Shown one piece after another: positions 1 through 9,547 of a stretch of 64,000 nucleotides of DNA. The stretch's first letter is position 1, and each line of letters begins with the position of its first letter. The stretch spans positions 49,675 through 113,674 of the forward strand of contig JAJNBL010000003.1 in the NCBI GenBank assembly GCA_021156175.1. The letters are read 5' to 3'. Under the pieces are notes generated by a model. The model saw only the letters and a list, made by a program, of their open reading frames with translations. It had not been told where the DNA came from and did no database searches. The translations under genes were made by a program, and so were the position numbers. The stretch is from Rickettsiales bacterium. GTDB taxonomy: Bacteria; Pseudomonadota; Alphaproteobacteria; Rickettsiales; JAJNBL01.

Positions 1-863
1 AGGATTATATTTTGCACATTATCCCCAAAACCTTCGCCGATGCGTTTACTGGGGAGGGGGATCTTTTGCAGATTTTACTGGTGGCGATATTGTTTGGCAT
101 CGCGATGACGCATGTGGGGGAGGTCGCAAAACCAGTTATCACGCTGATTGAGTCGCTATCAAAAATATTCTTCAAGATCATCTCTATGGTCATGACGTTA
201 GCGCCAATCGGTGCGGGGGCGGCAATGGCCTATACGATTGGAAAATTTGGTGCGGAATCCTTGCAGCAATTGGCGGGATTCGTGTTCCTGTTTTATGCGA
301 CATGTGCCGCTTTTGTGTTCATTGTGTTGGGAGTCCTTGCGCGGATTTGTGGCTTTAGTCTGTTCAAGTTTTTGCGCTACATCAAAACAGAATTAATCAC
401 GGTGCTTGGGACATCCTCGAGCGAATCGGTGATCGTTCAACTCATGCATAAATTGGAGAAACTCGGTTGCCATAAAACAGTGATCGGGATTGTCGTGCCG
501 GCGGGCTATTCGTTTAATCTGGATGGGACGAATATTTATTTATCGATGGCGGTGTTGTTTGTTTCGCATGCGGTCGGTATTGACTTGAGTTTACAGGAAC
601 AATTGACAATTCTGGCGGTGGCGATGTTGACCTCCAAAGGTGCATCGGGAGTGACGGGATCGGGCTTTATTACGTTGGCGGCGACGCTCGCCGTTGTGCC
701 TTCAGTGCCCGTGACGGCACTCGCGCTCATTTTAGGGATCGATCGTTTCATGAGTGAAGCGCGCGCGGTTACGAATATGATCGGCAATGGCGTTGCGGCG
801 ATTGTGATTAGTAAATGGGAGAAGGCGCTCGATGAGGAAAAGTTGCGTGCGGAGTTGGGGTAA
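1..863 (+). CDS. dctA: C4-dicarboxylate/amino-acid:cation symporter (DAACS family, DctA-like), 5' end outside window
   Basis: The frame is open from the window edge. The translation carries DctA-type blocks [42 protein letters not shown] and [21 protein letters not shown]. Confidence 0.88.
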
Positions 864-868
864 GGGCG

Positions 869-1393
869 CTACTCCTCACTTGCATAAACTAACCTCCTTC
901 CTTCTATCCGCCTCGCGCAAGGAGTCAAGGTTGCTTTTTCTATCCTTCCTTTTCCCATAATGTGAAAGACTTGCTTTCCCTCGGTGATAAGGTAATCGGC
1001 AATGATCCGACGATGGCATCGCCACCAAACCGCTTCAGCACACATTATCGCACAAGTTTGTTTACGACCAATTTGGCGTAAACGTTTCAATCCACAGCAA
1101 AACGGTTCTGTCATCGCATAATCCGCATAGTTCCGAAAGCTTTCATTATGCCAATAGGTATTAGAAGATTCAGGATTTTTTCTTCTGAGGCCGCCTAGTT
1201 CTTGGATATGCTCATAGCCTATATCGTGTTTTGCAAGAAAGCTGGGCAGGGTATCTTGATTATATTGCGGATTGGTACGGGAGCGTGGGATATGTCGGAC
1301 ATCAATAACCATCGTAACGCTAACCGATGTGAGCAGTGCTAAAAATTCTTCTAGCGAGCGTGTGGAATGGCCGATGGTGTAAAATGTAGACAT
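869..1393 (-). CDS. DUF488 family protein
   Basis: 174-aa ORF. The N-terminus TIGHSTRSLEEF...VIDVRHIPRSRTNPQ and the C-terminal block CAEAVWWRCHRRIIADYL fit the DUF488 pattern. Confidence 0.75.
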   Translation of the reverse strand: MSTFYTIGHSTRSLEEFLALLTSVSVTMVIDVRHIPRSRTNPQYNQDTLPSFLAKHDIGYEHIQELGGLRRKNPESSNTYWHNESFRNYADYAMTEPFCCGLKRLRQIGRKQTCAIMCAEAVWWRCHRRIIADYLITEGKQVFHIMGKGRIEKATLTPCARRIEGRRLVYASEE

Positions 1394-1483
1394 ATTACGC
1401 AGCTTCGCATTGATTTCATATCGGCATCATACCATTATCTACTTTTATCATTATTATACAATGTTATAAAAGGAAATTGTGTC

Positions 1484-2014
1484 ATGAAAAATGCCCTTCT
1501 TATTGCGCTGATTGTTGCGCTCCTTCCCCTTACCGCATCGGCGAATGGGTTCACGGAGGATTGTATCCTTCATCCGAATGAGCTTGAATCCACCTTTATT
1601 ATTACCGATCCTTCGATTAAAGATTCGATCAAAGAGGTGAGTCCCGTGCGGCATGATCGCCATACTCGCCATTTGTCGCATACGATAGAATTTCCATCAG
1701 GGGAACGGGTGATTTATTTGGTTGGCGGATGTATGCATTATGGGTTCAGCTACACCTTCACCCGTGTGCCGGTGGTGTTGAAAAAAGATGAAGTATTATT
1801 TGATATTATTCGTGATGAAGCCCGGCTATTGCCGATAGGCAAAGGAAGCGAACGCGAGCGCTTAGATAAGATTATTGATACGCTCGAAGTGGCATCAGCC
1901 GATAAGCAAAATTGGATCACACCCAAGCGCCTCTATGCGGATTTTGGCGATGCGAATGTGTCGTTGGAGCTTAAGCCGGATGGGTTTGCGATCAGTTATG
2001 ATTTTCCACTGTAG
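1484..2014 (+). CDS. hypothetical exported protein
   Basis: An internal ATG at 1484 gives the signal-peptide-like start MKNALLIALIVALLPLTASA. No recognisable domain. Confidence 0.6.
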   Translation: MKNALLIALIVALLPLTASANGFTEDCILHPNELESTFIITDPSIKDSIKEVSPVRHDRHTRHLSHTIEFPSGERVIYLVGGCMHYGFSYTFTRVPVVLKKDEVLFDIIRDEARLLPIGKGSERERLDKIIDTLEVASADKQNWITPKRLYADFGDANVSLELKPDGFAISYDFPL

Positions 2015-2016
2015 CT

Positions 2017-2586
2017 TTACTCCACTAACGTAATATCATGCACATGCACATCCCTTGCGCCATGCTTGGTTAGAGTGTCTCGAGCGATTTGTTCTTTCTC
2101 AAGGTCGGGGGTTGCCACCCAGAGCAATAGCCCCCCAGCATCGAGTTGTTTTTGGAAAAAATTAGCATATTCATCTCCCAAAAGTTTCGCAAGTAGACCG
2201 CCGAGTGCAGCGCCTCCCACCCCTCCCATAATAGCCGTAGTGACAAGTGCTCCGGGCGGAGTAAATGCACCAGCCGCTAGTATTGCGGCGACAACTCCGG
2301 CATACATCGTTCCTCCTACAAGTGCGCCCTGGGCGATGCCTAACTCTTGTGGTTTTACTTTTATGGAACGGGGAGTTTCGGGGTTATCTTCCAACTCTTC
2401 GGGCTTGATATGCGGTTGGCCGAAATGTTCTTCGACAGCCCCTTCGCTTCCTAATACGCTAATGTGACGACGCTCGAACCCCTGTAATTCCAGTTCGTCG
2501 ATTGCTGCTTGCATTTCATCAAGGTTGTTAAATACGCCGACGGCTTCACGTACTTTGTTAGTTGCTTCGATGGTTTGTTCGGACAT
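2017..2586 (-). CDS. hypothetical membrane-associated protein (Gly/Ala-rich hydrophobic core, YflT/stress-protein-like termini)
   Basis: 189-aa ORF with a central GALVGGTMYAGVVAAILAAGAF...GGVGGAALGGLLA hydrophobic stretch. The antisense ORF 2066..2467 is its shadow. Confidence 0.6.
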   Translation of the reverse strand: MSEQTIEATNKVREAVGVFNNLDEMQAAIDELELQGFERRHISVLGSEGAVEEHFGQPHIKPEELEDNPETPRSIKVKPQELGIAQGALVGGTMYAGVVAAILAAGAFTPPGALVTTAIMGGVGGAALGGLLAKLLGDEYANFFQKQLDAGGLLLWVATPDLEKEQIARDTLTKHGARDVHVHDITLVE

Positions 2587-2736
2587 GCGCTTCTCATAAC
2601 ACAGTTATCTTTGTTATAAGTTTAGGCGGGGACGCGCTAAAAATGCTATATTCTTTTTAACTGACTATTTTCGTTAATGATTTCTTCATAATTGTATTTC
2701 TATAACGAAGACAGAAATTCTTCAAAGGAGGTTCAA

Positions 2737-3201
2737 ATGAAGAAATCTAGTGCGACTAAAACTAAAAAGAAAACGGTAACTAAGAAGCCGGTAACCAAAA
2801 AGCCAGCAGCTAAAAAGAAATCGGCCGTTAAGAAGCCGGTAGCCAAAAAGAAATCGTCGAAACCCGTTGCGGCGGTAATCAGTCCTGTGAAAGAGACATT
2901 GACGAAATCTGCACTTCTCAACCTCATTGCCGAAAAAAATAACATCACGCGTAAACAAGCAAGCGAAATTCTCGCTACGATCGAAGGTGTGATGTTGGGT
3001 TCTGTTCATCCACGTGGTGTTGGTGAATTCATTCTCCCAGGCCTGTTAAAAGTGACCTTACGTAAGGTGCCTGCTCGTAAAGCTGGTACGCTCATCCGCA
3101 ATCCTGCGACCGGTGAGATGATGAAAGGTAAAGCAAAGCCAGCTTCTGTCCGGGTAAAAGTTCGCCCTCTCTCGAAGTTGAGAGCTGCTGCAATTAACTA
3201 A
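2737..3201 (+). CDS. HU/IHF-family DNA-binding protein with about 50-aa Lys/Pro/Ala-rich N-terminal extension
   Basis: ATG 2737 is preceded by aaggagg. The C-terminal 95 aa fit the HU fold (ILPGLLKVTLRKVPARKAGTLIRNPATGEMM...VRVKVRPLSKL). The N-terminus is KKKTVTKKPVTKKPAAKKKSAVKKPVAKKK. Confidence 0.85.
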   Translation: MKKSSATKTKKKTVTKKPVTKKPAAKKKSAVKKPVAKKKSSKPVAAVISPVKETLTKSALLNLIAEKNNITRKQASEILATIEGVMLGSVHPRGVGEFILPGLLKVTLRKVPARKAGTLIRNPATGEMMKGKAKPASVRVKVRPLSKLRAAAIN

Positions 3202-3250
3202 AGTTTTTTTCGGCTCTGTTTTAAACGACAGAGCCGAACCTTATTCTCTG

Positions 3251-4231
3251 TTACACCCCATGATATCCCCTAAACCACTCCACAAACTTCGGTAATCCTA
3301 CATCAATTGACGTTGTGGGCTTAAAGCCTAAATCACGGGTGGTTTCAGTGATATCGGCGTAGGTTTCCTTCACATCGCCATCTTGCATGGGTTTGAGTTC
3401 AATAATCGCTTTTTTTCCAACCGCATTTTCGAGCACTTCTATAAAACGTAACAGCGGTTCGGCTTGGTGATTTCCTAGGTTATATACCTTATGCGGAACG
3501 CCGGACGCAGCTGAGGGCGCGCGTGTGCGGGTAGCCAAGACACCTTGGACGATATCATCGACATAAGTAAAATCGCGCTTCATATCGCCTTGGTTATAGA
3601 CCTGAATCGGCTTGCCATCAAAGATTGCTTTCGTGAAGCTATAGGTCGCCATATCGGGACGTCCCCACGGGCCATAGACAGTGAAGAAACGTAATCCAGT
3701 CATCGGAATGCCATAGAGATGGCTGTAACAATGCCCCATCAGCTCATCGGCTTTTTTGGTGGCGGCATAGAGGGATACAGGCGAATCAACGGGATCATTC
3801 ACGGAAAATGGCAACTTGGTGTTGCCTCCATAGACGGAACTGGAGCTCGCATAAACCAGATGTTCGAGCTTGGGTAAATGATGCCGTGCGAGTTCTAAGA
3901 TAACCATCTGGCCGATGATGTTGCTTTCGATATAGGCAAGCGGATTCTCAAGCGAATAGCGCACGCCCGGCTGTGCGGCTAGGTGAATGATGTGGGTGAT
4001 TTCCGGATGGTTGCGCGCAAGCGCTTCCATTGCGCTGCGGTCGGTGATATCGATATGGCGGAAGAGAAAATTTTTGTGGGATTCAAGCTGCGAAAGGCGC
4101 GCTTTCTTAAGTGCGACATCGTAATAGCTGTTGAGGTTATCCACGCCTACGACTTTTTCGCTTCTAGCAAGCAGCGCTTCTGCGACATGATAACCGATAA
4201 ATCCGGCAGCTCCGGTGATGAGGGTGGTCAT
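3251..4231 (-). CDS. NAD-dependent epimerase/dehydratase (UDP-glucuronate 4-epimerase-like, extended SDR)
   Basis: Start taken at ATG 4231 (MTTLITGAAGFIGYHV Rossmann motif). The catalytic motifs SSSSVYG and YAATKKADE (YxxxK) are present. The longer ORF to 4336 runs through a palindromic repeat. Confidence 0.85.
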   Translation of the reverse strand: MTTLITGAAGFIGYHVAEALLARSEKVVGVDNLNSYYDVALKKARLSQLESHKNFLFRHIDITDRSAMEALARNHPEITHIIHLAAQPGVRYSLENPLAYIESNIIGQMVILELARHHLPKLEHLVYASSSSVYGGNTKLPFSVNDPVDSPVSLYAATKKADELMGHCYSHLYGIPMTGLRFFTVYGPWGRPDMATYSFTKAIFDGKPIQVYNQGDMKRDFTYVDDIVQGVLATRTRAPSAASGVPHKVYNLGNHQAEPLLRFIEVLENAVGKKAIIELKPMQDGDVKETYADITETTRDLGFKPTTSIDVGLPKFVEWFRGYHGV

Positions 4232-4274
4232 GGGGTGTTCCTTAGTAGTTTTTAACCCTTGTACTTGTAAACGT

Positions 4275-4407
4275 AAGGTAGAGTGACTGGAAGAGGTCGC
4301 CATCGCGAGGAACGAAGCGATCCAGCCGTCCAACACATTGATAGGCTGGATTGCTTCGTCGTTTCACTTCTCGCAATGACGACCTCTTGTGGAGTTACTA
4401 CCTCTTT
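4275..4407. repeat. ORF-less copy of the GIY-YIG-associated palindromic element (MITE/REP-like hairpin)
   Basis: The left arm 4275..4326 and right arm 4345..4407 are inverted repeats separated by 18 nt. Both arms match the arms flanking the GIY-YIG ORF at 24905..25328 (aagaggtcg.catcgcgagg...cgaagc.atccag / ctggattgcttcg...tcgcaatgacgacctcttgt). Confidence 0.7.
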
Positions 4408-4477
4408 TCCTAGCTTTTATCTATAACTGAACTTATCATAACGAAGACTTCACTGCTCACAATAAAAAAGGTTTCGC

Positions 4478-5008
4478 ATGACACAACGGCATTTTCTTTC
4501 CTACCGCGGCATCACGCCACGCATCGCCTCTACTGCATTTATCGCCCCTTCCGCCGATGTAATCGGCGATGTTGAGATCGGTGAAGATTCGGGAATCTGG
4601 TTTCATTGTGTGATACGCGGAGATGTCCAGAAAATTCGAATCGGTGCGCGCACTAACATTCAAGATGGCACCGTCATTCATGTGTCGCGCAACGATGGTC
4701 CGACGCATATTGGCAATGGCGTAACGGTGGGGCATAAGGCGCTGCTGCATGCTTGTACGTTAGAGGATGATTGTTTTGTGGGGATGGGCGCGATTGTGAT
4801 GGATGGTGCAGTGGTAGAATCTGGTGCGATGGTGGCTGCGGGTGCGCTGGTTCCTCCGGGGAAACGTGTGCTTGCAGGACAAATTTGGGCGGGGAATCCT
4901 GCGAAATATTTCCGCGATTTAAAACCACAAGAAACGGCGTATATTCCGATCTCTGCGCAGAATTATGTTGATCTCGCTCGGGAGTACCAGTTAGGTAAGT
5001 CATTGTAA
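4478..5008 (+). CDS. gamma-carbonic-anhydrase-family / hexapeptide-repeat protein (YrdA/PaaY-like)
   Basis: 176 aa with left-handed beta-helix hexapeptide periodicity (IGDVEIGEDSGIWFHCVIRGD...IGARTNIQDGTVIH...IGNGVTVGHKALLHAC). The last 33 codons are duplicated at 6455..6562. Confidence 0.85.
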   Translation: MTQRHFLSYRGITPRIASTAFIAPSADVIGDVEIGEDSGIWFHCVIRGDVQKIRIGARTNIQDGTVIHVSRNDGPTHIGNGVTVGHKALLHACTLEDDCFVGMGAIVMDGAVVESGAMVAAGALVPPGKRVLAGQIWAGNPAKYFRDLKPQETAYIPISAQNYVDLAREYQLGKSL

Positions 5009-5032
5009 ATTTTTAACCAGAAGTATTGCGTA

Positions 5033-6088
5033 ATGGAACGTAAAAAACTAACTGCAAGTTTTGTAGAGAGTCTAACTCCTCCTATTCGAGGAGAAAAATG
5101 GATTTCAGACACTATTTTGCCAGGATTTGGCATCAGATTATGGGGAGGTAAGACACAGGGTAAATCCTTTGCAATACGAGTTAATATAGGAAGTAAAAAA
5201 ATTATACGTAGAACCCTTTCTCCTGCAAAAGGCGTTTTTCTCAAAAGTGCAAGAATCGAAGCCGAAAGAGAAATAAAAGACCTAAAAATGGGAATTGAAA
5301 GGTATTTGTTGAAGCAGAAAATTAAAAGTATGACTTTTGCAGAATTAGCCGAGTACGCCTTGCAGAATCAAGAAAATGCTAATAGATCAATACAATATAT
5401 CGATGATAACAGGAAGCGCTTTGACAAGTTCACTCCAATCCTATTACAACAAAAGAAAGCAATAGATGTTACGGCAAACGAAATAGAATCACTTCTAAAT
5501 GCCATTGAATATAAACCTGCCCAGCAAAAGAATCTTCGTTCCTTTATTCATTATATGTTTCTGTTAGCTGAAAATATAACGTCTGAAAGACGTTTCTCTG
5601 TTGTGCTTTACTATTTAAAGCAAATAAAAATATATACCAAAAAATATGAGGAACTTGCTTCAGCACCCGAATTAACGAAAGATGATTTCAATAAGTTATT
5701 CAATATTCTAGAGAATGAACAAGCTTATGTTCAAAAAGCAAGTTTTATTCACTTACTTTTCTTATCTGGCCTAGATCCTTGTCCTAGTAGATTACTTAGA
5801 GCAACTTGGGATGAATTTGATATACCGCAGGAAAATGATTCTGCGAGGGTGCTTTGGATGCCAAAAGGAAAAACAAAAGAGAAACTCTTACGTAGTGGTG
5901 CAACTAAATTACTGCAAAAAATAAAAAAGCGAAATGAGACCGATTTCCCAGATAGTCCCTACCTCTTTCCTTCTAGTATTGCGTGGAAAACTGGACATAT
6001 CACTAGCTATGAAAACTATTGGGGATCTATACATGCCAGAACAGGACTACCCTCAATCTCCTTATACAATTTAATTTTCCTTTATTAA
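5033..6088 (+). CDS. tyrosine-recombinase (P4-type) integrase, probably truncated/degenerate
   Basis: The N-terminus KLTASFVESLTPPIRGEKWISDTILPGFGIRLWGGKTQGKSFAIRV fits the Arm-type DNA-binding (DUF4102) pattern. The ORF stops (..LYNLIFLY*) where the HxxR...Y catalytic region would be expected. Confidence 0.55.
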   Translation: MERKKLTASFVESLTPPIRGEKWISDTILPGFGIRLWGGKTQGKSFAIRVNIGSKKIIRRTLSPAKGVFLKSARIEAEREIKDLKMGIERYLLKQKIKSMTFAELAEYALQNQENANRSIQYIDDNRKRFDKFTPILLQQKKAIDVTANEIESLLNAIEYKPAQQKNLRSFIHYMFLLAENITSERRFSVVLYYLKQIKIYTKKYEELASAPELTKDDFNKLFNILENEQAYVQKASFIHLLFLSGLDPCPSRLLRATWDEFDIPQENDSARVLWMPKGKTKEKLLRSGATKLLQKIKKRNETDFPDSPYLFPSSIAWKTGHITSYENYWGSIHARTGLPSISLYNLIFLY

Positions 6089-6454
6089 GATAGTTATAGC
6101 AATAAACGCTCCTCGGTTTAATTCAAAAATGTCCAAGGTGACGGTATTGTACCCCAAAAGAAATTTTATTCTATTGAATCTAAAAGGATAATGTGGGTAC
6201 TGTGGCAGATTTCTCAATTTTAAAAATCTGTATTCTTTTCAAAACATCGCTAATTTTAATACAGGTACTTGGCCAGGACCTTTCATAACCAACAAGGAAA
6301 ATGATTTATGAGAATAAAGATTGAGACTACTGAATGTGAAATAAGGAAAAGAAAAGCTTTTTTCTTTATATCGCGTTATTTCACCTTTTTGTCGTTATTT
6401 TAAAGGTGATTATAAACAAGAAGGGTGCTTCAAATAATAGGGGCACCCTTCCAT

Positions 6455-6562
6455 TTCCGCGACTTGAAACCTCAAGAAACGGCGTATATTCCGATCTCTG
6501 CGCAGAACTATGTGGAACTTGCGCGTGAGTATCGTTTGGCACAAAAAAATACAACCATCTAA
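6455..6562 (+). pseudogene. displaced 3' fragment of the gamma-CA-family gene (attR-side copy)
   Basis: It encodes FRDLKPQETAYIPISAQNYVELAREYRLAQKNTTI*, colinear with the tail of 4478..5008. It has no upstream start. Confidence 0.8.
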
Positions 6563-6651
6563 TTAATAAATTAGAATTGTCTCTTGTTGCCCGCTGTGTT
6601 ATAGGTAATTCCTAGGAATTATCGTAACGATGAAAGCAGCGGAGACATGTT

Positions 6652-7392
6652 ATGTCAAAAAAATCTTCAGAAGAAAAAACACAGAATACTGTATCGGAAT
6701 CAAGTTCACCAAGCGCTTCAGAAGCGAGGAAAATGTGGAAAGAAAAGGTAGCAAGTAATCCTACTATTCCCCCCATTTCTCCAAAAAAAGAAATCAAGAA
6801 AGAGAGCACAGGTTCTTCACAAGAACAATCGACCTCTTCGGAGTTGGATGATCTGAAGGCAATGTTGCCAAAAGATATAACTTTTCCATGGGAAGAACGT
6901 CCCAAATTGAAAGGGCTGGATTTAAATCCAGGAGATCTAAATACGATCAAACTTACAGAAGCGCTTGAATCGTTACTCGACGAGGACAATTTCAAAACAA
7001 AGGCACGGGAGAGGGATAAAAAACCGGCTGCAAAGCCTAGTGCAGAAGAGGTGTTTTCGACTTCTCTTCCTGAAAAAAAACCATTGCAGGAAGCTTCTGC
7101 TCGCGCCCATAGTCGTTCGGATCATCGTCGTAATCCACAAAAGGTTGATGTTGCAAAAGGGGCTGAATTTGCGGATAAGGCTCTTCCCAAGCCGACTTCT
7201 ACCCCTGAATTATTGATGCCTCCTGCAAAGAAAGAGTCCAAATTCCCGCGCTCGTTAAGTTCCAGTGATGTGACAGCGAATACTTCTTGGGTAAAAAAGA
7301 CCGCGGATTCCAAAGAACCCAGCAGAGGTGGTGGGCGCTCTAGAGGAACGTCAATTGGTCAGCAACGGCAAGTAATAGAGAAAAAAGACTAG
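6652..7392 (+). CDS. hypothetical Ser/Lys/Glu/Pro-rich (likely disordered) protein
   Basis: 246-aa ORF of low-complexity composition with no recognisable domain. Confidence 0.5.
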   Translation: MSKKSSEEKTQNTVSESSSPSASEARKMWKEKVASNPTIPPISPKKEIKKESTGSSQEQSTSSELDDLKAMLPKDITFPWEERPKLKGLDLNPGDLNTIKLTEALESLLDEDNFKTKARERDKKPAAKPSAEEVFSTSLPEKKPLQEASARAHSRSDHRRNPQKVDVAKGAEFADKALPKPTSTPELLMPPAKKESKFPRSLSSSDVTANTSWVKKTADSKEPSRGGGRSRGTSIGQQRQVIEKKD

Positions 7393-7591
7393 TTACCCCT
7401 TGCATTTACAAGGCAAATAAGGTAAAAAGACCGCTCTTCTTTCTATATATATAGTATAGGAGGGGGAAATTCGCACGCAGGTTTAAGGGGATCTCCTCCT
7501 TTTCGAGTGCTGGTTGAAGTTGCTGTTAAATAAGCGATTTTTCCGGTGACGCCTGCGAAGGTATAACCGATAAAACAAGAGAGTATTATAT

Positions 7592-8533
7592 ATGAACGCT
7601 CCGGCTAATCTTCCTGCTTTTTCTATGCGCGAACTCCTGGAATCAGGGGTGCATTTTGGTCACAAAACCGCGCGTTGGAACCCACGTATGGCGCCTTATA
7701 TCTATGGCAGCCGTAATGGTGTACATATCATTGACCTCCAACAAACCGTGCCACTTCTTCACCAAGCACTGCAAAAAGTGCATGATGTTGTTGCAAAAAA
7801 CGGCCGTGTATTGTTCGTTGGTACGAAGCGTCAGGCATCTGAAGTATTGGCTGATGAAGCAAAGCGTTGTGGTCAGTATTATGTGAATCACCGTTGGTTG
7901 GGTGGGATGCTTACCAACTGGAAAACCGTATCAGCTTCTATTCGTGTATTGAAAGACATCGAATTACAGCTGGCGGATGAGAGTCTGCGCCTGACGAAAA
8001 AAGAGAAATTGGGCTTGAGCCGTCAACATGAGAAACTTCAACGTTCTTTGGGCGGTATCCGCGAGATGGGCGGTGTTCCTGATCTTCTCGTTATTATTGA
8101 CACGAACCGCGAAAACCTTGCGATTTTGGAAGCACAGAAACTTGGTATCCCAGTGATGGCGATCCTCGATACGAACAGCGATCCTGAAGCTATCGATTAT
8201 CCAGTTCCTGGTAACGATGATGCGACTCGTGCGATTGCATTCTACTGCCGTCTTTTGGCGGATGCGGTGCTTTCTGGTATCGAAAAAGCGATGGTTTCTG
8301 GTGGTGCTGATATCGGTGCGCGCTCTGAAATCTCTGGTGAAAATCTCCGTACCGTAAAAGGTGGCGGGAAACTAGACCACGCGAAAGCGAAGAAAGGTGC
8401 TGGTGCTCCTGCGAAGAAAGCAGACGCTGCTTCTTCTGAAGAAGGTGATGCTAAGAAAAAAGCTCCAACCGTTACCAAAAAACCAGCTCCGAAAAAGCCT
8501 GCAAAAGCAAACGATGCGGGCGAAGCTGCTTAA
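7592..8533 (+). CDS. rpsB: 30S ribosomal protein S2 with Lys/Ala/Pro-rich C-terminal tail
   Basis: S2 blocks are present ([37 protein letters not shown]) and tsf lies downstream. The protein is 313 aa, versus roughly 240-260 aa as I recall for typical S2. Confidence 0.95.
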
Positions 8534-8545
8534 TTGATCTGAATT

Positions 8546-8585
8546 AGGTACCCTTAAGCATTAGAGCTTGGGGTACCTTTTCTTC
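8546..8585 (+). terminator. rpsB-tsf intergenic hairpin (attenuator/partial terminator candidate)
   Basis: The stem aggtaccc (8546..8553) / gggtacct (8571..8578) is followed by tttcttcc. Confidence 0.4.
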
Positions 8586-8623
8586 CAAATAGTATAACTC
8601 AATGAGAAATAAAGGGAAAACCT

Positions 8624-9547
8624 ATGGTGATTTCAACCGCACTTATTAAGGAACTTCGTGAAACCTCCGGTGCCGGCATGATGGATTGCAAAAAGGCGCT
8701 GACCGAGAATAATGGCAATATTGAAGAAGCAAAAGATTGGCTCCGAAAAAATGGTTTGGTGAAAGCAGCGAAAAAAGCTTCCCGTACCGCGGCGGAAGGC
8801 TTGGTGGCGCTTGCGACCAAAGGCACGACCGGTGTTGTGGTGGAGCTTAACTCTGAGACCGATTTCGTGGCACGTAACGACAAATTCCAAGCATGCGCGA
8901 GCACGATTGCTCAAGCAGCGCTTGCTGTGGATGGTGATGTTGAGGCTTTAAAGGCTGCGAAATTCCCCGGCAGCAGCCGAAATATTGGCGATGAAGTTTC
9001 TGAACTCGTCGGCACGATCGGTGAGAACTTGAACCTGCGCCGTTTTGGCAAGCTTTCTGTGAAACAAGGTTCGATTGTGAGCTATATCCACAATGCGATT
9101 GCTCCGAGACTTGGAAAAATCGGGGTATTGGTGGCGCTTGAGTCGTCTGCTTCTGCGGATAAACTCGAAACCATTGGTAAGCAAATTGCGATGCATATCG
9201 CGGCTGCGCGTCCTGAATCATTGAACGCAGATGAGTTGGATCCTTCGCTGGTTGAGCGTGAGCGCGTGATTTTCCGTGAGCAAGCAAAAGCCTCTGGCAA
9301 GCCAGACAACATCATCGAAAAGATGGTTGAAGGCCGTATTAGCAAATATTATGGCGAAGTAGTGCTCTTGGAGCAGGTATTCGTGATTGATGGAAAAACC
9401 AAAGTATCTGATGCCGTGAAAGAAGCGGCTAATGCTGCGGGTGCGCCAATTACGGTTACCGGTTACCTCCGTTTCGAACTGGGTGAAGGCATCCAGAAGG
9501 AAGAAACGGATTTCGCGGCGGAAGTTGCGGCAGTTGCTAACAGCTAG
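8624..9547 (+). CDS. tsf: elongation factor Ts
   Basis: The UBA-like N-terminus [20 protein letters not shown] is present, the full length is colinear with EF-Ts, and the gene follows rpsB. Confidence 0.95.

Follow-up and report, generated by a model that had tools for sequence, protein, structure and literature searches.

The stretch of DNA analysed here, a 64-kb window (64,000 nt) of contig JAJNBL010000003.1 from a Rickettsiales bacterium (GenBank assembly GCA_021156175.1), contains a gene of the gamma-carbonic anhydrase (gamma-CA) family whose 3′ end adjoins an integrase-like open reading frame (ORF) and recurs further downstream. The features of the locus are collected in Table 1. The product of the host gene matched the Pfam family Hexapep (E = 1.8e-16) and the NCBIfam gamma-CA model NF050158 (E = 6.6e-52), the latter with a score of 175.6 bits, under the 250-bit equivalog cut-off. 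More than 7000 homologues were found, which are labelled as gamma-CA family by their sources (NCBI, JGI).

Table 1. Coordinates of the features at the gamma-CA-family locus (positions of the window; copies A and B are the two copies of the gene tail).
Feature	Position	Strand	Remarks
Divergent haplotype tract around the islet	3662..6720		3.06 kb; flanking DNA ~6–15% diverged (about 10%) from L012, plus indel
Gamma-CA-family (hexapeptide-repeat) gene	4478..5008	+	176 aa, intact; ends ..NYVDLAREYQLGKSL* (= copy A)
ATTTCCGCGA, left homology edge, probable crossover segment, attL side	4908..4917		A/B homology ends abruptly leftward
Element-supplied replacement tail (P′ arm mimic of the gene 3′ end)	4918..5008	+	Encodes ..DLKPQETAYIPISAQNYVDLAREYQLGKSL*; 81% identical to L012 tail
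Identical block	4928..4962 = 6473–6507		35 nt, no mismatch
Spacer, substitute stop codon to integrase-like start codon	5009..5032	+	24 nt; CCAGAA.TATTGCG in common with L006 spacer
Integrase-like ORF	5033..6088	+	351 aa; arm-binding, core-binding and catalytic-like domains; ends at HxxR position, without tyrosine segment
TGTCCAAG, family-conserved motif just past the integrase-like stop codon	6130..6137	+	Possible arm-type binding site
Conserved palindromic block CAGATTTCTCAATTTTAAAAATCTGT	6206..6231	+	AATCTGT invariant in 5-locus alignment, present in 8 loci
CTTGGCCAGG, conserved near-palindrome upstream of the small ORF	6268..6277	+	TGGCCAGG invariant in 5-locus alignment, in 7 loci
Small ORF (MRIKIETTECEIRKRKAFFFISRYFTFLSLF)	6308..6403	+	31 aa; AAGGA before it; in place of the 60-aa helix-turn-helix gene of other members
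Hairpin adjoining attR junction	6420..6451	+	12-bp stem; free energy −21 kcal/mol, z = −3.2; 0/200 shuffles fold as well
ATTTCCGCGA, attR-side copy of the probable crossover segment	6453..6462		Unrelated element DNA to its left
Stranded original gene 3′ end (copy B)	6455..6562	+	35 codons + stop codon, in frame, without own start codon; ..NYVELAREYRLAQKNTTI*

The repeated gene tail forms a direct repeat of 79 nt (4908–4986 and 6453–6531) that is 89% identical, with a start-to-start spacing of 1545 nt and a self-BLASTN E value of 1.7e-23 within the window. The same self-search of the window revealed no third copy of the tail and no second copy of the integrase-like gene. The GC content is 0.31–0.38 over 4951–6600, compared with ~0.50 upstream. 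Both tails encode the same 20 residues, FRDLKPQETAYIPISAQNYV, with five nucleotide differences that are all synonymous, and then part into ..DLAREYQLGKSL (copy A) and ..ELAREYRLAQKNTTI (copy B). Over the whole tail, the proportion of nonsynonymous differences (pN) was 0.13 and that of synonymous differences (pS) was 0.60. The preliminary description of this DNA, made from the sequence without database searches, had reported a gene tail recurring at 4910..5008 and 6455..6562 around a 35-bp identical core, with synonymous differences only and then different C-termini. The core was found exactly as described, the match was found to extend over the 79 nt given above, and the count of shared codons came to 20, with five silent changes. 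An assembly duplication, named there as a way in which the observation might fail, can be excluded because the copies differ at 11% of positions and the repeat sits within a 522-kb contig. No other gene ending in ..EYQLGKSL was found among the best 120 of the more than 7000 gamma-CA homologues, and a search with the tail-A peptide alone returned no candidates.

Among public sequences, the closest homologue of the host gene is P0008 (93% identity). At 179 aa, P0008 has exactly the length expected if the gene body ran on into tail B, and its C-terminus is ..NYVELAHEYRLAQKNTTI. Its contig, L012, belongs to JGI 3300044648, a sister sample of the source of the window, 3300042904. L012 contains no insert, and the gene has the same neighbours on both sides there; 90 nt separate its stop codon from the next gene, as in the window (6562 to 6652). 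Thus, the uninterrupted allele ending in ..LAQKNTTI that was expected in a relative does exist, with a single tail and with synteny kept. Copy B (6455..6562) is 95.5% identical to the tail of this allele and has the same C-terminus. Since the L012 allele is uninterrupted and is closer to copy B, tail B is the original one and tail A arrived as part of the insert, which is 1545 bp long. The last 30 codons and the stop codon of the gamma-CA-family gene are therefore supplied by the islet. Low-GC foreign DNA lies within the last 100 nt of the gene, accompanied by a substitute tail, a stranded tail and an empty allele.

All this allows us to assume, with fairly high confidence, that the segment ~4918–6462 (1545 bp) is a minimal integrative islet that entered the 3′ end of the gamma-CA-family gene via site-specific recombination of the tyrosine-recombinase type. 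The arrangement of a left attachment site (attL), an integrase gene and a right attachment site (attR) in a protein gene rather than a tRNA gene, which had been proposed earlier, is supported by the repeat, the empty allele and the integrase-like ORF beside attL. According to the proposed mechanism, the attachment site of the incoming element (attP) would have carried a ~90-nt mimic of the last 30 codons of the gene. Crossing over at the 5′ edge of this mimic, at ATTTCCGCGA, would have kept the gene open, giving 20 identical residues followed by a new 12-residue end, and the original tail would have been pushed 1545 nt downstream as a dead fragment. From left to right, the islet consists of the tail mimic, a 24-nt spacer, the integrase-like gene, the conserved motifs, the small ORF, the hairpin and attR.

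The position of the crossover was estimated from the differences between the copies. At 4918, 4921 and 4927, which lie between ATTTCCGCGA and the 35-nt block, the L012 empty allele reads as copy B. In the simplest reading, copy B from 6463 on would be host DNA and copy A from 4918 on would be element DNA, and the exchange probably occurred within or beside ATTTCCGCGA, where the homology begins on the gene-proximal side, rather than in the 35-nt block. The estimated likelihood ratio in favour of ATTTCCGCGA over a position inside the 35-nt block was ~3–10. The 35-nt block, which had been regarded as the core, was probably not the crossover site, given the three sites to its left. The host sequence at the crossover segment, GCGAAATATTTCCGCG, is close to a palindrome, a common property of core sites. 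For islands that target tRNA genes, the exchange is likewise placed at the gene-proximal edge of the homology.

The 351-aa product of the integrase-like ORF was analysed by profile, sequence and structure searches. Pfam Phage_integrase (PF00589) matched residues 214–330 (profile positions 3–111 of 172) at E = 6.7e-5, with a score of 23.2 bits that is under the gathering cut-off of 27.1. Arm-DNA-bind_3 matched at E = 0.0066 with 17 bits, under the cut-off of 27, and no match was obtained in the NCBIfam scan. BLASTP aligned residues 1–347 with an annotated 399-aa plasmid site-specific integrase of the DUF4102 type (E = 1e-12), which contains full Arm-DNA-bind_3, SAM-like and Phage_integrase domains; residues 1–88 aligned with its N-terminus, which carries Arm-DNA-bind_3 at E = 3e-18. 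The alignment stops at the canonical THGIRH, after which 66 residues follow in the plasmid integrase and 4 in the window protein. The AlphaFold2 model, built with 30 family sequences, had a predicted local distance difference test (pLDDT) score of 92.3, and its top Foldseek matches were full-length lambda Int structures (1z1g and 1z1b; E = 1e-5, probability 1.00), followed by Cre, Tn1549 Int, XerH and XerA. From the alignment, the fold and the stop point it follows that the protein is a genuine three-domain integrase homologue without the HxxR, the second His/Trp and the Tyr. The protein probably keeps Arg-I and the beta-hairpin Lys, judging by the pairwise alignment with the 399-aa integrase, where PSR--LL stands opposite ARRSE and PKGKTK opposite PDSKTG, although the Arg-I column is not invariant family-wide. 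By itself the 351-aa protein probably cannot cut DNA.

The ORF was searched for a lost catalytic end, since the preliminary description had it stopping before the HxxR/Tyr region. Three-frame translation of 6040–6460 gave only noise, as did a tblastn search of 6000–6600 with full-length relatives and the C-termini of two canonical integrases. The ORF ends in TAA, and the codons past it would add only 10 residues. As no missing catalytic residues were found in 6089–6450, the end of the ORF, at the HxxR position, stands as claimed. The start of the ORF just after the first tail copy was also confirmed, 24 nt past the substitute stop codon. The term "P4-type", which had been applied to this integrase, holds only in part: homology to recombinases is supported by Pfam, BLASTP and the fold, but the type assignment goes beyond the distant homology found, with Arm-DNA-bind_3 below threshold. 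A consensus scan of the 24-nt spacer revealed no promoter-like site. Because the spacer is short and has no such site, co-transcription of the integrase-like gene with the host gene is plausible.

The short C-terminus turned out not to be a private truncation, as had been implied, but a property of the whole closest clade. A set of 5.8 billion proteins yielded only six clusters of close relatives, with 27–47% identity. An exhaustive profile search added two more close relatives and delineated a wider family of 101 representatives at E < 1e-30 and 270 at E < 1e-10. The close relatives are 366–417 aa long and all end 0–65 aa (most of them within 40) from the HxxR position, the extra residues being unconserved. 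HxxR and Tyr are absent from every one of them, and the HxxR position reads L-x-x-L-(I/V)-x-(N/R)-(Y/H). Members of the wider family (~420 aa) have a non-canonical end, R-[YF]..N-x-P-S-Y...V-S-K, which is outside the coverage of the Pfam model; most of the invariant columns are located in the N-terminal DNA-binding domain (residues 20–74). Phage_integrase was matched at E <= 1 in only three of seven clade members, and the best Arm-DNA-bind_3 match of a clade member had E = 5.4e-5. The gene is annotated as "hypothetical", and the family goes unrecognised by Pfam and NCBIfam. Stop-codon recoding was considered and rejected; the clade members end in TAA, TAG or TGA.

Clade members are not pseudogenes but are under purifying selection, according to a comparison of the integrase-like proteins of loci L005 and L015 (71% identity). 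Synonymous sites were saturated in this pair and pN/pS was 0.16–0.20 in all three domains, rising up to 0.47 only in the last 20 residues. The fold is that of an integrase, the catalytic end is missing, and conservation is clade-wide. No relatives were found in phage records or in viral contigs. Further relatives came from two loci in GTDB genomes and three in JGI metagenome contigs; in plasmids, only canonical integrases with 22–25% identity were found.

The region downstream of the integrase-like gene (6089–6452) had been described as about 360 bp of AT-rich non-coding DNA. The low GC content was confirmed, but the region is not mere filler, as it contains conserved motifs, a 31-aa ORF and a hairpin. 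An exact copy of TGTCCAAG was found within 100 nt past the stop codon in seven of the 10 related loci for which downstream sequence was available, and this motif is not enriched elsewhere in the window. The related loci share an order in which TGTCCAAG is followed by a palindromic block with AATCTGT at its end, then by (C/T)TGGCCAGG, and finally by a small ORF preceded by its ribosome-binding site. The motifs may act as arm-type or regulatory sites. The 31-aa ORF resembles a 36-aa ORF at the same position in locus L002 (pairwise E = 0.005), and the right end of L002 has an analogous strong hairpin. An Rfam scan of 4300–7600 gave nothing in the islet at threshold.

Four other loci contain, instead of the short ORF, a gene for a 58–60-aa helix-turn-helix (HTH) protein (MPTLKDLSRAEIAVIKARILRGDKYEDIASDYRINQGRIADLKFGR..), located at 9544–9726 in L003, 11490–11672 in L005, 4124–4300 in L007 and 3565–3747 in L015, always after the integrase-like gene and the conserved motifs. 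It is under strong purifying selection, with a ratio of nonsynonymous to synonymous substitution rates (dN/dS) of 0.05–0.07, and its only Pfam match is a weak one to sigma-70 region 4; the protein could be an excisionase or a regulator. The idea of a split integrase, with this ORF as the missing C-terminus, was rejected because no BLASTP match to a canonical C-terminus was obtained. A remnant of the HTH gene in the window was also looked for, and the only match, of 14 aa (6190–6231, E = 2.6), was unconvincing.

In five settings, an integrase-like gene of the family follows another gene on the same strand and starts 23–54 nt past its stop codon. The preceding genes are the gamma-CA-family gene of the window, mfd (L006, L013), thiC (L008), a galE-like epimerase gene (L002) and a CGNR zinc-finger gene (L005). 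Such positions agree with a family whose targets are the 3′ ends of protein genes. The motif CCAGAA.TATTGCG, common to the spacers of the window and L006, suggests a stop codon that is part of the element side. The element in L002 is ~1.5 kb long and fills the gap between the galE-like gene and manC, and its integrase-like protein is among the most similar to that of the window (47%). Given the shared motif order and the matching short ORF, hairpin and layout of L002, the window islet represents the minimal form of the family and does not look like a random stump. In the 12.7-kb contig of L005, positions 1–9977 contain genes for a relaxase, MobC, a 1035-aa helicase-caspase fusion, HipA with an HTH protein, and the CGNR zinc-finger protein before the integrase-like gene; this contig might represent either a mobilisable element or a circle that had been excised and was assembled as linear.

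The empty allele was also used to evaluate the surroundings of the islet. When the window was compared with L012 after removal of the islet, 2 mismatches were found in 1–3661 and none in 6721–7186, so that outside the divergent tract ~4.1 kb of the sister-sample assemblies could be compared. Inside the tract, the gamma-CA gene body alone showed a synonymous divergence (dS) of 0.42. Because the islet lies inside a diverged tract that interrupts otherwise identical sequence, the presence/absence polymorphism is not the same as a fresh integration, and the comparison with L012 is no evidence for a recent integration of the islet by itself. One possibility is that homologous recombination with a diverged relative over 3662–6720 brought in, or removed, the islet along with its flanks; the other is that the assembler switched strains. 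A recombinase-dead element, fixed in place and carried along with the DNA on either side of it, would be consistent with this picture.

Two further features touch the tract. Between the epimerase and gamma-CA genes, at 4240–4400, there is a 98-nt imperfect palindrome with 42-nt arms that are 74% complementary (inverted repeat 4291–4332 / 4347–4388). The corresponding sequence of L012 is different and shorter, which marks this intergenic region as a hotspot of indels within the diverged tract. At 6652–7392, between the stranded tail and rpsB, a 246-aa low-complexity ORF rich in Lys, Ser and Pro was found, for which neither Pfam nor NCBIfam has a family; the initial ~70 nt of this ORF lie in the diverged tract and differ heavily from L012.

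Several points weigh against the reading of the locus as an islet integrated by att-site recombination. The 3-kb diverged tract could reflect a strain switch in the metagenome assembly. No tail duplication was found in L002, L003, L005, L007 and L008 when the upstream 200 nt were compared with the downstream sequence by BLASTN-short and tblastx; since most of the other contigs are short, a stranded tail is demonstrable only in the window. Support for the crossover position is modest because it comes from only three sites in a tract of ~10% divergence. Neither a circular form nor an attP junction was seen, so that it is only the layout that suggests integration by the integrase-like protein family, and a protein without HxxR and Tyr does not easily account for the arrival of the element.

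It was considered whether the locus is the stump of a larger genomic island, in which an internal deletion took the cargo together with the 3′ end of a canonical integrase gene. Distant members of the family do lie near genes of mobile elements (relaxase, MobC, HipA and helicase-caspase in L005; an XRE-type gene and others in L015), and the window ORF ends 12–65 residues before its closest relatives, with only 10 residues available past TAA. However, the close relatives, with only 37–47% identity and in different genomes, all end near the same position without HxxR and Tyr, and independent deletions would not match in this way. The motif order of the family, the small ORF and the terminal hairpin are kept after the stop codon, and a 1.5-kb element of the same layout separates two host genes in L002. 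The searches for a catalytic remnant were negative. An island stump is thus quite unlikely. That the repeat is no att structure at all but a local duplication, a target-site duplication of a transposon or an assembly artefact is extremely improbable. The bare existence of a direct repeat is all that speaks for it, while the copies differ by 11%, mostly at synonymous sites, and so are not fresh. The homology of 79–100 nt ends exactly at the gene end, one copy adjoins an integrase homologue, only a single tail is present in the empty-site allele and the contig is 522 kb long.

The other alternatives concern the role of the protein. It might be the active recombinase of a self-sufficient 1.5-kb element, working through non-canonical residues or with a partner subunit. 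The purifying selection in all three domains, including the catalytic-like one, the conserved arm-binding domain and downstream motifs, and the location 23–54 nt past the stop codons of gamma-CA, mfd, thiC and galE-like genes in different genomes, which points to repeated site-specific insertions, would agree with this. Against it, no conserved Tyr, HxxR or His/Trp is present past the last helix in the close clade, the wider family shows no invariant Arg-I, and the sole presence/absence polymorphism found is accounted for by the flanking recombination tract. To our knowledge, no tyrosine recombinase is known to work without its tyrosine segment, and we regard this alternative as unlikely. A domesticated, catalytically dead DNA-binding protein with an integrase fold, such as a regulator or a site-binding factor for which the islet is kept, seems doubtful. 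It would explain why the N-terminal DNA-binding domain is the most conserved part and why selection is purifying; the integrase-fold repressors YopR (8bpz) and SroF (9rgl) are among the structural matches, at low rank, and the start 24 nt past the host stop codon with no promoter-like site makes co-transcription plausible. Nevertheless, the distribution is patchy, the gene is absent from the near-identical sister haplotype, the DNA is low-GC and foreign, members occupy different loci in different genomes and there is no evidence of a regulated target.

A minimal integrative islet remains the preferred interpretation. Its copy in the window is most likely immobile, because the integrase-like protein alone probably cannot cut DNA, and it would stay so unless a canonical integrase acted on it; we lean, if only slightly, towards an islet that cannot move by itself. 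A broader and still speculative proposal is that the ORF and its relatives (~100 representative clusters at E < 1e-30) form an unannotated integrase-fold clade that has lost HxxR...Tyr and is kept by selection. This clade would define 1.5–2-kb elements located just behind housekeeping genes, past their stop codons, and consisting only of an integrase-like gene and one small ORF. These might either be satellites that borrow a canonical integrase, or encode att-site-binding proteins and spread only with their flanks by homologous recombination. If such proteins still mobilise DNA or need a helper integrase, they would amount to a new type of integrative element, minimal or satellite in nature. 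Should they be dead, the islet would show how an element that has lost its own mobility can persist and be spread, together with its flanks, by homologous recombination.

Two other observations were made elsewhere in the window. A second low-GC islet is located at 12088–14043 (GC content 0.31–0.37 compared with ~0.47). The 14 nt that end tRNA-Leu(taa) (GGCCGTGGGCACCA, 12162–12175) are repeated exactly at 14030–14043, and between the two copies there is a single 515-aa pentapeptide-repeat ORF on the minus strand (12333–13880) and no integrase. This segment looks like the remnant of an islet targeting a tRNA 3′ end. Directly upstream of rpsB (7592–8533), the sequence 7472–7585 showed a weak Rfam match to the rpsB leader/small RNA family RF01815 (24.9 bits with a gathering score of 40, E = 0.044) and is probably a diverged S2 autoregulatory leader.

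The islet was compared with three known systems. P4-type islands (Arm-DNA-bind_3/DUF4102) at tRNA 3′ ends have the int gene beside attL, and their attP restores the target gene from the crossover to its end; the sublocation rule for islands in tRNA genes is said to go back to Williams in 2002. The islet resembles them in the position of the integrase-like gene by attL, in the restored 3′ end of the target and in having a homologous three-domain integrase. It differs in its protein-coding target, in Pfam scores below the gathering thresholds and in the lack of the HxxR...Y segment. YopR and SroF of SPbeta-like phages have a tyrosine-recombinase fold without recombinase activity that is used for DNA binding; the integrase-like fold of SroF has been described (bioRxiv 10.1101/2025.11.27.690993). 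They were found at Foldseek ranks 49–50, and their likeness to the window protein is a weak structural one (E = 0.03). Both are master repressors of phages and are not located at an att junction.

The closest parallel in layout is the e14 prophage. In the account of it given in PMC13626634, which cites Hill et al. 1989 (PMC210168), Escherichia coli icd "extends into" the prophage and the C-terminal pseudogene icdC is located at the far end. Like the islet, e14 (and phage 21) at icd combines a target in the 3′ end of a housekeeping gene, a near-synonymous substitute tail and a stranded C-terminal fragment. However, e14 is 15 kb long, has a working integrase and excises on SOS induction, whereas the islet measures 1.5 kb, contains no cargo, targets a gamma-CA-family gene and encodes an integrase-like protein without the catalytic C-terminus. 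Thus, the layout is of a known kind, that of e14 and icd, and a gamma-CA-family target in a Rickettsiales-like genome is new. Present evidence does not call for a new category; compared with the known systems, the unusual part is the tiny size of the islet and the conserved tyrosine-less clade to which its protein belongs.

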